DNA of 63,455 nucleotides from Minisyncoccia bacterium. Its GTDB lineage: Bacteria; Patescibacteriota; Minisyncoccia; Phycocordibacterales; UBA1006. Shown here one piece after another: positions 15,976 to 63,455 of this stretch (within the stretch, counting starts at the first letter, position 1; every line of letters starts with the position of its first letter). The DNA lies in contig JBGATS010000005.1 in NCBI GenBank assembly GCA_044229075.1, forward strand, positions 1 to 63,455. The letters are read 5' to 3'. Under the pieces are notes generated by a model that did not search any database, had not been told where the DNA came from, and worked only from the letters and a program-made list of their open reading frames with translations. A program made the translations under genes and the position numbers.

Positions 15976-16368
15976 AACACTGAGAAGATCAATTCTCAGT
16001 GTTTTAATATATTTAGGAGGGTTTTCTTGTTTGTATTATGAAAGATTTTATAGTGCATATGTAATATATCTCTTGGTGTACTCAAGAGGATTTTTATTCC
16101 CAACATCTCGATGCTCTGCATTAGGGTTTTTCATTTGACTAATATTAATTTTTATATTTTGTTTTATATTTTACTTATATTTTATTTTGTATTCATATAT
16201 ACTGAAGAGTACCTTATACCAGTGAGTAGGCTGAATATAAGATTTATTAGTAACTTTTTTATAATCATTTGTTTATTTAGGACATAGTCAGATTATTGTA
16301 AAAAATTTTTGTTATGATTATTTTAAAAAAAAACAAAAAGTTCCCATATATTTTTTCAATGTGTCTCA

Positions 16369-54198: not shown

Positions 54199-54232
54199 CG
54201 GCTTTGCTAAAGCAAAGCCGTTTTTTTTTTTT
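54199..54232 (+). terminator. GC hairpin plus T-tract after the second target gene
   Basis: CGGCTTTGCT-aa-AGCAAAGCCG followed by T12. Confidence 0.75.
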
Positions 54233-61036: not shown

Positions 61037-61672
61037 ATGAAATTTCCAAAAGTAACACAATTGGCAGCAAGCACTGCAGATCAAGAACTAAAAGCGGAAC
61101 TTGATCAATTGCTTAAACTTGCAGCAGACGTAGTCGCAAAAATCATTGAAGTCATTGGTAAGATTTTCATCAAAACAAATACCGTTATCAATGGCACACA
61201 ACTTGCCGAAGGCAGTAGTACTATTGAACGTCAATTGGAAAACTTCAAAGAAGTTGCCAAAGCACGTGGCATCACGAATGTTTGGACTGGTGATAACATC
61301 ACCAGATGGTTCCCAAACGAAAAGGTTTCAAAAACCATTGCTGGGCCCAGCCGATTATTACGTTTTATGAAAAGTATTACACACGCAAAAATCATTGACG
61401 GCTGCAAGCAGTTAAATGCTTACCAGGAATATGATTTGAGTGATGGAATCGAGCGTGCAACTGCATTGGTAGTTGCGGGTGAATTAGATAAAAAAGATAA
61501 TACAGGCATTATTATTTATCTGACAAACTGCAAAGACGGCACTCCGTGCAGGCTGGGCGTGTGGCGTTACGGTGACGGTGAGTTGCGCCTCGGTGTTAGC
61601 AAGGTCAATCCAGACTATGAGTGGAACGCTGGTTACGGTGTTCTGTGCAGCAACGAAAACTTGGATGTATAA
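61037..61672 (+). CDS. DGR target (variable) protein
   Basis: The 3' end contains the VR matching the TR at 61971. VR-encoded CRLGVWRYGDGELRLGVSKVNPDYEWNAGYGVLCS is consistent with a C-type-lectin-like DGR display fold (fold inferred). Confidence 0.92.
   Translation: MKFPKVTQLAASTADQELKAELDQLLKLAADVVAKIIEVIGKIFIKTNTVINGTQLAEGSSTIERQLENFKEVAKARGITNVWTGDNITRWFPNEKVSKTIAGPSRLLRFMKSITHAKIIDGCKQLNAYQEYDLSDGIERATALVVAGELDKKDNTGIIIYLTNCKDGTPCRLGVWRYGDGELRLGVSKVNPDYEWNAGYGVLCSNENLDV
61545..61654 (+). repeat. DGR variable repeat (VR)
   Basis: 97/110 identical to the TR; all 13 differences are at TR adenines (8 A>G, 3 A>T, 2 A>C). Confidence 0.97.
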
Positions 61673-61970: not shown

Positions 61971-62080
61971 CGTGCAGGCTGAACGTGTGGCGTAACGATG
62001 ACGGTAAGTTGAACCTCAATGTTAACAAGGTCAATCCAGACAATGAGTGGAACGCTGGTAACGGTGTTCTGTGCAGAAAC
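61971..62080 (+). repeat. DGR template repeat (TR)
   Basis: AAC/AAT-rich copy of the VR (32 A in 110 nt) lying between the target gene and avd/RT. Confidence 0.97.
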
Positions 62081-62089
62081 ACAAATTTT

Positions 62090-62114
62090 CTCTCCTATTT
62101 TTTATATAGGAGAG
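62090..62114. other. Hairpin immediately 3' of the TR, overlapping the avd stop
   Basis: CTCTCCTAT-N7-ATAGGAGAG followed by TTTTT. Confidence 0.55.
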
Positions 62115-62458
62115 TTTTTCGTTTCCAGTGTTTTTTCAATTCCTTTTTTCCATCCGCCCAACATTCGTCCAATTTCGTCCAGATCAGCAGAGATTTTTAT
62201 ATACTGATTGTTTGCCATGATTTTTCCTTCCCATGCGACAGATAGTAGAAACTTTACCATATCCAATTGTCCTGTTGCACGCACGATGGTATTTATTTTC
62301 TCAGTTGGGTTTTGATATGTCGCTTGATACACATAGGCAAGCATGTTCAAGAAATGTTGATCGATATTATTGCCCAGTGTGTATCGTGATGTTTTCGGAA
62401 AATTTTTCAAAATCTCCATCCATGCAATATAAGCGATTTTAGATTTTGGTAAAATCAC
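62102..62458 (-). CDS. avd: DGR accessory variability determinant (Avd-like four-helix bundle)
   Basis: FPKTSRYTLGNNID...LDMVKFLLSVAWE...LDEIGRMLGGW is the bAvd/four-helix-bundle signature; located between TR and RT on the opposite strand. Confidence 0.88.
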   Translation of the reverse strand: MILPKSKIAYIAWMEILKNFPKTSRYTLGNNIDQHFLNMLAYVYQATYQNPTEKINTIVRATGQLDMVKFLLSVAWEGKIMANNQYIKISADLDEIGRMLGGWKKGIEKTLETKNSPI

Positions 62459-62471
62459 TGGTAATTTCGCC

Positions 62472-62482
62472 GGGGGGGGGGG
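62472..62482. repeat. G11 homopolymer between the avd and RT starts
   Basis: Eleven consecutive G in a low-GC region. Confidence 0.9.
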
Positions 62483-62495
62483 TACTATTATTGGA

Positions 62496-63455
62496 ATGAA
62501 AAAAATTTTGAGTCATGTATACCAAGATATCATATCAATGGAAAATTTGCTTGCCGCATGGCAGGAATTTAAAAATGGAAAACGCAGTAAGCCAGATGTT
62601 GCAGAATTTGAGCGAAATTTAATGGATAACCTATTTGATCTACAGGAACAATTATTGAATTATTCATATCAACACAGCGGATATAAAGCGTTCAGAATTA
62701 ACGACCCAAAACCTCGTGACATTCATAAAGCATTAGTGCGTGATCGGTTAATGCACCATACTATCTATCGGCAATTCTATTGGTTTTTTGATCGAACATT
62801 TATTTACGACTCGTATTCATGCAGAATTGGTAAGGGAACTCATAAAGCAATCAATCGTTTCAAGGAATTTTCCAGAAAATGTTCGCGTAATAATACTCGG
62901 ACTTGTTGGGTTCTGAAATGCGATATCAAAAAATTCTTTGCAAGTATTGATCATGAAATACTCAAGCAGATTTTGCGGAGCCATATTGATGACAGTGATA
63001 CGATTGGATTATTGGAAAATATTATTGATAGTTTTTGTACAAGTGGCAACCCACATAGTGGTTTGCCACTTGGTAATCTGACTTCTCAATTGCTCGTAAA
63101 TATTTACATGAACAAGTTTGATCAATTTGTAAAACATCAACTGAAACAAAAATACTATATTCGGTATGCAGATGATTTCGTATTTCTTGCAGAGAGTAAA
63201 AATGAATTAGAGAAATTATTGCCGTTGATACGGAAATTTTTATGGAAATCGTTACGACTAGAATTACACCCTGAAAAGGTGTTCATCAGAACAGTTGCAT
63301 CAGGGGTAGACTTTTTAGGGTGGGTACATTTTGAGAAGCATAGAGTATTGCGGATGAGTACAAAACGTCGTATGATTCGTAATTTAAAGGACACTCAAGA
63401 ACTAGAGTCCATAATAGCATATAGAGGGATGTTGTCTCATGGGAATACGTGGAAA
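62496..63455 (+). CDS. DGR reverse transcriptase, partial (runs off the right edge)
   Basis: Open frame from ATG 62496 (MKKILSHVYQDIISMENLLAAW) with KPRDIHKA..RDR, SYSCRIGKGTH, CDIKKFFASIDH, GLPLGNLTSQ (63060), YADD (63165-63176) and GVDFLGW. Absent from the ORF track because no stop lies in the window. Confidence 0.96.
   Translation, partial: MKKILSHVYQDIISMENLLAAWQEFKNGKRSKPDVAEFERNLMDNLFDLQEQLLNYSYQHSGYKAFRINDPKPRDIHKALVRDRLMHHTIYRQFYWFFDRTFIYDSYSCRIGKGTHKAINRFKEFSRKCSRNNTRTCWVLKCDIKKFFASIDHEILKQILRSHIDDSDTIGLLENIIDSFCTSGNPHSGLPLGNLTSQLLVNIYMNKFDQFVKHQLKQKYYIRYADDFVFLAESKNELEKLLPLIRKFLWKSLRLELHPEKVFIRTVASGVDFLGWVHFEKHRVLRMSTKRRMIRNLKDTQELESIIAYRGMLSHGNTWK

Follow-up and report, generated by a model that had tools for sequence, protein, structure and literature searches.

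A conserved, length-variable homopolymer in the avd leader of a Patescibacteria DGR: a candidate contingency switch on hypermutation

Introduction

To our knowledge, little is known about the regulation of DGRs. In a Minisyncoccia bacterium, a DGR was found in a window of 63,455 nt (the whole stretch of DNA analysed, 38.1% GC) with a run of 11 G residues at the junction of the accessory gene avd and the reverse transcriptase (RT) gene. No other G or C run in the window reaches 7 nt. This tract separates the putative avd start codon from the conserved avd core and leaves the two one base out of frame. The locus thus raises the question of whether the tract is an error or an incidental feature of the junction, or a mutable element that sets the production of Avd and, through it, the extent of hypermutation. 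An earlier note made from the window alone had proposed a phase-variable ON/OFF switch. Here, this proposal is weighed against its rivals by means of the reading frames at the junction, the tract length in samples of the same species, a family survey and the predicted structure of Avd.

The DGR and its activity

The element presented adenine-restricted mismatches between template repeat (TR) and variable repeat (VR), an RT gene adjoining the TR, an Avd protein and retrohoming in nature, as expected of a DGR (Table 1). The alignment of TR and VR over 111 nt revealed 14 mismatches, 14 of 14 placed at TR adenines. The gene order was target/VR, TR, avd (reversed) and RT, with TR, antisense avd and RT being co-directional, and the tract was located ~820–940 nt from the VR. 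The product of the target gene had no match in Pfam or NCBIfam. The comparison with a second strain (X3) revealed 14 differing VR sites, 12 of them at TR adenines, and the remaining two copied changes of X3's own TR (positions 62005 and 62050, at an offset of 426). The DGR is alive, and its VR has been rewritten since the window (G11) and X3 (G12) strains split.

Table 1. Features of the DGR and of the avd/RT junction in the window.
Feature	Position	Strand	Basis or remark
DGR target gene, 211 aa	61037..61672	+	ORF
Variable repeat (VR), 3′ end of target gene	61545..61655	+	TR match; differs between window and X3 strains
Template repeat (TR)	61971..62081	+	111-nt ungapped match to VR
avd core ORF, 118 aa from GTG, bAvd four-helix bundle	62102..62458	-	Pfam, NCBIfam, predicted fold
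avd leader ORF from ATG 62516	62439..62516	-	Sequence, homologous N-termini and in-frame P0001/P0035 form
Hairpin adjoining the 3′ end of the C run, GGCGAAATTA-CCAG-TGATTTTACC	62448..62471	-	MFE fold, shuffles; GTG start in loop and 3′ arm
G11 (+) / C11 (avd strand) homopolymer	62472..62482	.	Sequence; Pro run of Avd leader, frame-setting between ATG 62516 and Avd core
DGR reverse transcriptase, 5′ part (truncated by the contig end)	62496..63455	+	RVT_1, E=3.9e-25

Reading frames at the junction

On the minus strand, the C11 tract occupies codons 12–15 of the long Avd, with the start ATG of the family before it and the folded core after it. With C11, the leader ORF that begins at ATG 62516 comprises 25 codons (MTQNFFHSNNSTPPPGEITSDFTKI) and ends at a TAA stop (62441–62439); with C10 or C13, the leader is fused with avd, the C10 translation being MTQNFFHSNNSTPPPAKLPVILPKSKIAYIAW. 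The GTG that opens the avd ORF is 58 nt downstream of this ATG, and the head-to-head overlap of the long avd with the RT start is 21 nt, RT codons 1–7 being antisense to the avd leader and the ATG itself antisense to RT codon 7 (His, CAT). All of these points of the earlier note, that is, the G11 run, the one-base offset, the restoration of the frame by C10 or C13, the spacing and the overlap, were confirmed from the sequence in every detail.

It had also been supposed that ATG 62516 is the likely true start of avd. In fact, the N-terminus M-x-Q-x-F...TPPP-x-(K/Q)-LP is shared by close and distant Avd homologues, and all eight repeat-free relatives carry an in-frame ATG 24–42 nt upstream of the GTG-equivalent codon, which indicates that this ATG is the normal avd start of the family. 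Moreover, the in-frame C10 protein predicted earlier turned out to be real, being encoded in two other samples of the species (P0001/L001 and P0035/L097). In each of them GTA replaces GTG, and therefore only the upstream ATG can serve as start.

Tract length among near-identical genomes

Tract-length variation, as a phase-variable switch would show, was observed among near-identical genomes, with lengths of 8, 10, 11, 12 and 13. Within the species, the comparison of assembled contigs, some of them of low depth (X6 at 2.4x, L083 at a coverage of 0.42), gave lengths of 8, 10, 10, 11, 12, 12 and 13, so that in-frame and out-of-frame alleles were both present. For example, the G11 of the window was also found in an independent assembly (Logan, run X1, contig depth 11.4), the X3 strain carried G12 (contig depth 13.4), and further samples carried G8 (X6) and G13 (X5), in addition to the two C10 alleles described above and a C12 allele with GTA. 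In a sister strain, a single C in the tract was the sole difference over 1,365 nt between L095 (C12) and L096 (C11). Contig ends often fell at the tract (X2, X8, L003, L018, L028 and L081), which is no more than suggestive of switching within a population.

Four further loci (L084–L087, all C10) had been recruited by exact identity to an in-frame protein, so they carry no evidence on length variation. The junction was absent from four other runs of the same sample or study and was found in no RNA run, and a scan of metagenome contigs for the tract flanks with a variable gap returned six chance matches, none with a C run.

Conservation of the tract and of the adjoining hairpin

The family survey covered 81 species-level CPR loci. 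A C7–C12 run was present at the junction in 68 of these loci, and G or C runs of at least 8 nt were found 65 times at the junction versus three times elsewhere in 386,737 bp; the run is at this position far beyond chance. In one locus (L072), the C run was replaced by (GA)8 at the equivalent position. The 68 runs and this substitute indicate that repetitiveness is conserved, and not the peptide or a G motif; the use of pure CCC codons in genomes of ~38% GC also points to it.

The tract was in frame with the upstream ATG in only 21 of the 68 loci, which is about the one third expected of a free-running switch. Eight more were in frame with an alternative start, 29 presented the +1 type of offset, 14 the other and three both, and the ranges for offsets 0, +1 and +2 were about 21–29, 29–32 and 14–17 loci, respectively. 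The repeat is located in a reading frame near its 5′ end, polymorphic in length and maintained by selection, being over-represented, conserved in position and replaceable, as contingency loci are. A link between downstream 'bypass' start codons and out-of-frame tracts was also considered; there was a within-species hint, but the family-level counts did not support it and this idea was dropped.

A hairpin was predicted directly after the C run, with an MFE of –4.8 kcal/mol in the window; in relatives, perfectly paired stems, differing in sequence, reach up to 10 bp. A stem of at least 5 bp starting 0–3 nt after the run was found in 30 of the 68 loci (44%) versus 1.3% of shuffles, comprising nine stem sequences, and more than half of the loci had no such hairpin. 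The wobble pairs favoured the avd-sense RNA in the clade of the window and the RT-sense RNA in the Nomurabacteria clade, and the mean fold energy was slightly more stable in the RT sense (–7.5 versus –6.6 kcal/mol in the avd sense).

The Avd protein

The avd product matched the Pfam bAvd family (PF22296, E=4e-17) above the cutoff, and reached 74.4 bits against NCBIfam DivGenRetAVD, under the cutoff of 80. The GTG ORF aligned to the Pfam and NCBIfam profiles from positions 15 and 11, respectively, so the first 10–14 profile positions are unmatched in the GTG form. A sequence search of the PDB with the Avd profile returned no match, but the fold search did: the predicted Avd core reached target-normalised TM-scores of 0.82–0.90 with bAvd chains (4DWL, 8UB7), with a sequence identity to BPP-1 Avd of only about 17–20%. 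In the predicted structures, the GTG-start form included the whole four-helix bundle, residues 1–20 of the long form were disordered and helix 1 began at the GTG-equivalent codon; a repeat in such a disordered leader would be expected to tolerate extra prolines. Public annotation (P0038) places the avd start at Met14 (105 aa), a position that, according to the model, would delete most of helix 1, and an exact look-up of the 118-aa GTG-form protein found it not on record.

The Avd core was intact in 80 of the 81 loci, and the dN/dS ratio was 0.03–0.1 for the closest pairs of loci that were both out of frame (OFF). Purifying selection on the Avd cores is thus strong even where the tract is OFF, and these genes are not pseudogenes.

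A candidate switch on Avd

The reading that we consider somewhat more probable than its negation, judging from the sequences compared, is that the tract is a simple-repeat contingency switch acting on Avd and hence on hypermutation, random and heritable, with an on and a low state. The G11 run would be a conserved hypermutable simple-sequence repeat in the 5′ coding leader of avd in a CPR-type DGR. Translation of the long Avd would start at ATG 62516 and proceed through ~11 codons, the C run (Pro-Pro-Pro) and the short hairpin into the four-helix bundle, and replication slippage would alter the run length and thereby set the frame. C10 and C13 would give the long Avd, and with C8, C11 or C12 the leader would end after ~25 codons. 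In the present genome (C11), the long Avd would be off and at most a short Avd would be made, from the derived GTG 62458 or through rare polymerase or ribosome slippage. The RT of DGRs is known to require Avd, a dependence established with the Bordetella phage element; accordingly, mutagenic retrohoming would be switched by tract length, in a heritable, reversible and stochastic manner between an on and a low state. We infer in this way that the tract controls the level of Avd and, via Avd, the activity of the DGR.

The switch may be leaky, given the derived GTG, the adjoining hairpin and the rewriting of the VR between two out-of-frame strains. A GTG form with the full fold, VR turnover in out-of-frame strains and the hairpin together imply that 'OFF' may mean 'low', and the rewriting of the VR after the split of the G11 and G12 strains implies either a passage through ON lengths or that OFF alleles function. 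In some lineages the switch may be bypassed, since the GTG form has the complete fold and a sister lineage has an ATG after the tract. Two observations count against a switch: an identical length and offset (C9, +1) is shared by at least 10 Nomurabacteria species, which is more stable than free drift predicts, and dN/dS values near 0.05 are strikingly low if the gene is silent in most genomes. The phase-switch proposal is partly supported: the mutable, conserved and frame-setting tract was borne out, and the out-of-frame state may or may not silence hypermutation.

A broader form of the proposal, to which we give only a minor probability, is a two-layer control in most CPR/Patescibacteria DGRs (B3), in which a slippage-set frame and a hairpin-aided leak would produce a graded and evolvable diversification rate. 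The first layer would consist of a hypermutable repeat, maintained by selection within the disordered leader of Avd, with the frame set by replication slippage, and the second a covarying hairpin that would make out-of-frame alleles leaky via tRNA-Pro or polymerase slippage.

Alternative explanations

It is possible, yet rather unlikely, that the locus is frame-agnostic, with the C run and hairpin forming a recoding site at which the ribosome (tRNA-Pro, +1 or –1 on CCC) or RNA polymerase slips. Every length would then yield some full-length Avd, and length variation in the DNA would be a by-product or a level tuner. A slippery run followed by structure within 0–3 nt has the geometry of a frameshift signal, and this explanation is also favoured by the VR rewriting between two out-of-frame strains and by the 29 loci in which no ATG, GTG or TTG precedes the core in the Avd frame, the cores being nonetheless under strong purifying selection. 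Moreover, the +1 offset was twice as common as the other in out-of-frame loci (29 versus 14), the Nomurabacteria C9 alleles included. However, programmed frameshift sites keep one direction, and here offsets 0, +1 and +2 were all found; the (GA)8 repeat fits DNA slippage and not tRNA-Pro slippage; the hairpin is present in under half of the loci, with wobble pairs that favour neither strand; and bacterial RNA polymerase slippage is known mainly from A/T runs.

An improbable alternative is that in this lineage Avd is made from GTG 62458 and that the tract and hairpin are placed in its 5′ untranslated region, the DGR being insensitive to tract length, so that the switch is bypassed. The GTG ORF covers most of the Avd profiles and all four predicted helices, the GTG is retained in the window strain and in X3, both of them out of frame and with a VR that changed after their split, and the sister lineage carries ATG-CCA-GTT immediately after the tract, called as a 122-aa protein. 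Nevertheless, the GTG is a derived codon without conservation, being GTA in alleles of the same species and GTT, GCA or GCG in relatives, and any start codon after the tract was found in only 10 of the 39 OFF loci. The GTG is also placed within the hairpin behind a weak GGCGA, and it would be left unexplained why 68 of the 81 species maintain a pure C run at this junction.

Even less probable is a role chiefly for the opposite strand, with the run as part of the RT 5′ leader, a promoter spacer or the TR-containing DGR RNA, which has to extend through antisense avd, the effect on the avd frame being incidental. The G run ends 13 nt ahead of the RT ATG and is followed by the –10-like hexamers TACTAT and TATTAT; TR, antisense avd and RT share their direction; and on the RT strand the hairpin precedes the G run, with the slightly more stable fold. 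However, in relatives the run lies anywhere from ~10 to >26 nt away from the RT start, its flanks are not conserved among them and contain no conserved hexamers, and a promoter/terminator scan gave matches at chance level (4 versus 2.1 ± 1.3 expected for promoters). The scan and the flanks bear equally on promoter-spacer phase variation of the Bordetella fim and Neisseria porA/opc kind, where a tract is placed between conserved –35 and –10 hexamers, and which this locus may or may not share. The (GA)8 replacement and the in-frame ATG of all repeat-free relatives favour a role in the coding frame.

Finally, the assembly or sequencing error named in the earlier note, with an in-frame G10 as the true state, is very improbable. 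Homopolymers of ~11 nt are indeed error-prone, and public C10 alleles show that the in-frame form occurs in the species, but a second assembler also gave G11, X3 gave G12 at a depth of 13.4, an out-of-frame tract is present in about two thirds of the 68 species, and L095 and L096 differ at the tract alone.

Relation to known systems

The candidate switch resembles the poly-G/C contingency loci of Campylobacter jejuni, Neisseria meningitidis, Haemophilus influenzae and Helicobacter, which are intragenic and operate by translational phase variation through slipped-strand mispairing: in both, a G/C homopolymer of ~8–13 nt lies near the 5′ end of an ORF, in a residue-tolerant region, is strongly over-represented relative to the rest of the genome and differs in length between otherwise identical genomes, and in-frame and out-of-frame alleles occur naturally. 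Unlike in these loci, the gated gene would encode not a surface or modification function but a retroelement accessory protein that serves to hypermutate another gene; the tract occupies the same orthologous position in numerous candidate phyla and is not confined to a species; and the host is an uncultured Patescibacterium, in which switching is a proposal.

Homopolymer recoding is known from dnaX in Thermus (transcriptional slippage on A9), from +1 slippage of tRNA-Pro on CCC-C and from the rescue of poly(A) frameshifts in endosymbionts. There too, a slippery run, often near a stem-loop, joins two frames of one gene, but at the avd/RT junction the offset is not conserved, the run is C/G instead of A/T and a dinucleotide repeat can substitute for it.

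The DGR of Bordetella phage BPP-1 (mtd-avd-TR-brt) shares the Avd fold (4DWL, 8UB7) and the adenine mutagenesis in the VR; its avd, unlike the one described here, is co-directional with the TR and upstream of it. We know of no homopolymer in BPP-1 avd.

The element also resembles the CPR/Patescibacteria B3 DGRs, whose TR-(avd)-RT order and orientation are the same (Wu et al. 2018, PMC5758913; Roux et al. 2021, clade 2, PMC8144416), as are the Avd fold, the DGR-type RT, the adenine-only TR/VR mismatches and the small chromosomal target with a C-terminal VR. Neither paper speaks of a repeat within avd, of a problem with its frame or of a hairpin where avd meets the RT gene, and we found no published description of such a tract in the avd of CPR DGRs; as far as could be found, it is an undescribed feature of a known DGR class.

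Implications

In public annotation, avd is mis-started or truncated, and calls of DGR 'activity' could be stratified by tract state. Roux et al. (2021) reported an activity below average for the Patescibacteria DGR clade in population surveys (PMC8144416), which the switch, if true, could help to explain. A hypermutator would then be placed under a stochastic and heritable switch by means of a mutable repeat that gates its accessory protein, and a lineage could freeze a useful VR variant and later reopen diversification.

The tract within an active DGR

The window carries a live diversity-generating retroelement (DGR), the features of which are collected in the table. The 118-aa avd product matched Pfam bAvd (E = 4e-17) and NCBIfam DivGenRetAVD slightly below the cutoff, and the ORF of the reverse transcriptase (RT) matched RVT_1 (E = 3.9e-25). 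The variable repeat (VR) and the template repeat (TR) formed a 111-nt pair in which 14/14 mismatches were placed at TR adenines. The gene order, target/VR, TR, reversed avd and RT, corresponds to what Wu et al. 2018 call architecture B3, reported there for 90% of CPR DGRs (PMC5758913). The related loci were found in Nomurabacteria, Paceibacterota, Uhrbacteria, Moranbacteria and other Patescibacteria, whose DGR clade was reported to have below-average activity (Roux et al., PMC8144416). From 61971 to 62496, TR and RT point the same way and avd lies antisense between them; a TR-RT transcript would run antisense to the entire avd. In the Bordetella element this region is a 'spacer' RNA, whereas its counterpart in the window would be complementary to the coding sequence of avd.

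Features of the DGR locus in the window
Feature	Coordinates	Strand	Remarks
Target ORF	61037-61672	+	VR at its 3′ end
VR	61545-61655		3′ end of target ORF; paired with TR
TR	61971-62081	+	Paired with VR
avd ORF, 118 aa	GTG 62458 to 62102	-	Mechanical ORF list
Hairpin	62471-62448	-	GGCGAAATTA-CCAG-TGATTTTACC; GTG in loop and 3′ arm
G11 homopolymer	62472-62482	+	C11 on the avd strand
Leader ORF	ATG 62516 to TAA 62441-62439	-	Reads MTQNFFHSNNSTPPP through the C run
RT ORF	Starts 62496, past contig end	+	ORF list; RVT_1 match

The G11 tract (C11 on the avd strand) was the sole G/C run of at least 7 nt in the 63,455-nt window, the GC content of which is 38.1%. Other homopolymers in the window included a T12 run at 54221-54232 and an A9 run at 16325-16333. 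Past the C run, the leader ORF continued with the off-frame GEITSDFTKI up to its stop codon. The GTG start lay 58 nt downstream of ATG 62516, with the two frames one base apart, and a run of C10 or C13 would join them. Since the RT ORF starts at 62496, it and the long avd would share 21 nt in a head-to-head overlap. The earlier note had described this tract, ATG, frame relation and RT overlap from the sequence, and all of these statements hold: the tract is real, it lies inside the avd coding leader, and the long Avd is out of frame in the window genome.

The avd start and the structure of its leader

The N-terminal extension predicted by the same note was found in called homologues of Avd. 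The 137-aa protein P0001, 97% identical, presented the N-terminus MTQKFFHSNNSTPPPAKLPVILPK, the leader of P0003 contained MSQLFSHTLNNTPPPTKLPAIL, and P0004 and P0005 resembled these two. In the repeat-free species-level set, which left out 68 tract-bearing loci, a (GA)8 locus and four contigs starting at the tract or gapped after it, 8/8 loci had an ATG in frame, located 24-42 nt ahead of the window-GTG equivalent. ATG 62516 is the family-typical avd start. The AlphaFold model of the long Avd had a mean pLDDT of 88.6, with residues 1-13 below 50; secondary structure was absent up to residue 20, and the GTG-equivalent marked the beginning of helix 1. Superposition of the core model on Bordetella phage Avd (4DWL, 8UB7) gave target-normalised TM-scores of 0.82-0.90. 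The C run thus encodes prolines of a leader that is predicted to be disordered and precedes the helical bundle. The public annotation of the contig places avd (P0038, 105 aa) at 62102-62419 on the minus strand, starting from Met14, which would take away most of the predicted helix 1; gene callers gave at least six different N-termini for the family.

Variation of tract length within the species

The window and sequencing run X1 shared G11 (depth 11.4) and the GTG. In other runs, G12 was found in X3 (12-kb contig, depth 13.4, GTG present, 4 substitutions in 801 nt), G8 in X6 (depth 2.4), and G13 in X5 (151-nt contig, depth 7.3), where TTCGCC+GG stands ahead of the aligned G11. Two ENA samples (loci L001 and L097) carried C10 and encoded the in-frame 137-aa protein; GTA replaces GTG in both, so the upstream ATG alone can serve. 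A further ENA locus, L083 (coverage 0.42), carried C12 and is without an alternative start because it also has GTA. The in-frame lengths, 10 and 13, were a minority among species alleles. In a sister lineage sampled three times under adjacent ENA accession numbers, L095 carried C12, and L096 and L098 carried C11. A single C was the sole difference between L095 and L096 across 1,365 aligned nt, so the tract changes faster than any other site of the locus.

Assembly breaks or gaps exactly at the tract were common: contigs of X2 and X8 were broken inside it (62472-62482), those of L003, L018 and L028 ended there, and L081 had Ns after C12. These breaks could reflect populations in which several tract lengths coexist, or difficulty in sequencing across the run. 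In L082, a 571-nt ENA scaffold with a 97% identical avd copy, unrelated AT-rich DNA replaces the leader, the tract and the 5′ hairpin arm upstream of AAATTTTACC; the scaffold is chimeric, or else the allele has a deletion.

The tract across the family

A usable C7-C12 run directly upstream of the Avd core was present in 68 of the 81 species-level loci (79 GTDB representatives, one NCBI genome and the window). The comparison of homologous CPR avd/RT junctions, which the earlier note had suggested, revealed that lengths vary: runs of 7, 8, 9, 10, 11 and 12 nt occurred in 4, 8, 26, 17, 12 and 1 of the 68 loci, respectively. Among the remaining loci, three sit on contigs starting at the tract and one has a scaffold gap immediately after it. 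In L072, from an uncultured 'Saccharibacteria' bin (CAYQKB010000014.1), (GA)8 replaces the C run, at a distance of about 40 nt from the Avd core on its upstream side, and the upstream ATG misses the Avd frame by one repeat unit. G/C runs of at least 8 nt numbered 65 at the junction versus 3 elsewhere in the 386,737 bp searched.

An in-frame ATG upstream of the run was found in 21/68 loci and only an in-frame GTG or TTG in 8/68; a start codon existed only downstream of the run in 10/68, window included, and in 29/68 the Avd frame contained no ATG, GTG or TTG before the core. Among loci without an in-frame upstream ATG, the offset was '+1' (window type) in 29, the other in 14 and both in 3. C9 with the +1 offset was common to at least 10 Nomurabacteria species, a clade in which the tract is unusually stable. 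The Avd core was intact in 80/81 loci, and the closest pairs with both members out of frame had dN/dS of 0.03-0.1 at dS 0.6-1.2 (median over 35 pairs, 0.17). Selection this strong on the core implies frequent enough expression of these genes for it to act.

Probable frame switching and its alternatives

That AT-rich genomes keep a pure C run at a single orthologous position, where another type of repeat can stand in for it, suggests that mutability itself has been selected, and neither a peptide nor a G-rich motif. Moreover, about one-third of loci in frame and all three offsets represented is the expectation for a free-running frame switch, and a programmed frameshift of fixed direction would leave a different pattern. 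Loci without the repeat are always in frame. Taken together, these observations qualify the site, at the sequence level, as a simple-repeat contingency locus. With moderate confidence, the likeliest mechanism is slippage at the DNA level, by which the long Avd would be switched and, along with it, the activity of the DGR.

Recoding at the run and hairpin irrespective of frame is a rather doubtful alternative. A slippery run followed by structure is the geometry of a ribosomal frameshift signal, and a perfect stem of at least 5 bp, 0-3 nt past the run, was found in 30/68 loci (44%, versus 1.3% of shuffles), with 9 distinct arms. The stems had different, mutually compensating sequences (window, L002, L088, L011, L026, L029, L047), including perfect 10-bp stems differing in sequence in L002 and L088. 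However, the hairpin was absent from more than half of the 68 tract-bearing loci, and its wobble pairs agreed with the avd-sense RNA in the clade of the window but with the RT-sense RNA in the Nomurabacteria clade. The occurrence of all three offsets speaks against a fixed direction.

Bypass of the switch via GTG 62458 in the window lineage is unlikely as the main explanation, although it is a possible start: its predicted product would hold the whole bundle, and the sister lineage has an ATG immediately after the tract. This GTG is derived, since same-species alleles have GTA and relatives GTT, GCA or GCG. 

The out-of-frame state may be leaky in the window species, as the possible GTG start, the hairpin next to the run, the constancy of C9 in Nomurabacteria and a change in VR all suggest. 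The window (G11) and X3 (G12), both out of frame, had 14 differing sites clustered in VR, 12 of them at TR adenines. At 61579 and 61624, the two remaining sites, X3 carries exact copies of the substitutions in its own TR (62005 and 62050), at an offset of exactly 426 nt. Such copies are a clear trace, left in nature, of information passing from TR to VR, and retrohoming therefore took place after the two strains had split. Since then, either the tract passed through in-frame lengths or Avd was still supplied by out-of-frame alleles.

A role of the tract on the RT/TR strand is very improbable, and assembly error as the origin of the tract length is even less likely.

Full-text literature searches returned no paper tying Avd or DGRs to a homopolymer, simple repeat, slipped-strand or contingency mechanism, and two large DGR surveys (Wu et al. 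2018, PMC5758913; Roux et al. 2021, PMC8144416) made no mention of an avd tract. Simple-repeat phase variation and DGRs are each already well known separately; a variant in which a conserved repeat gates the accessory gene of a DGR seems not to have been described before.
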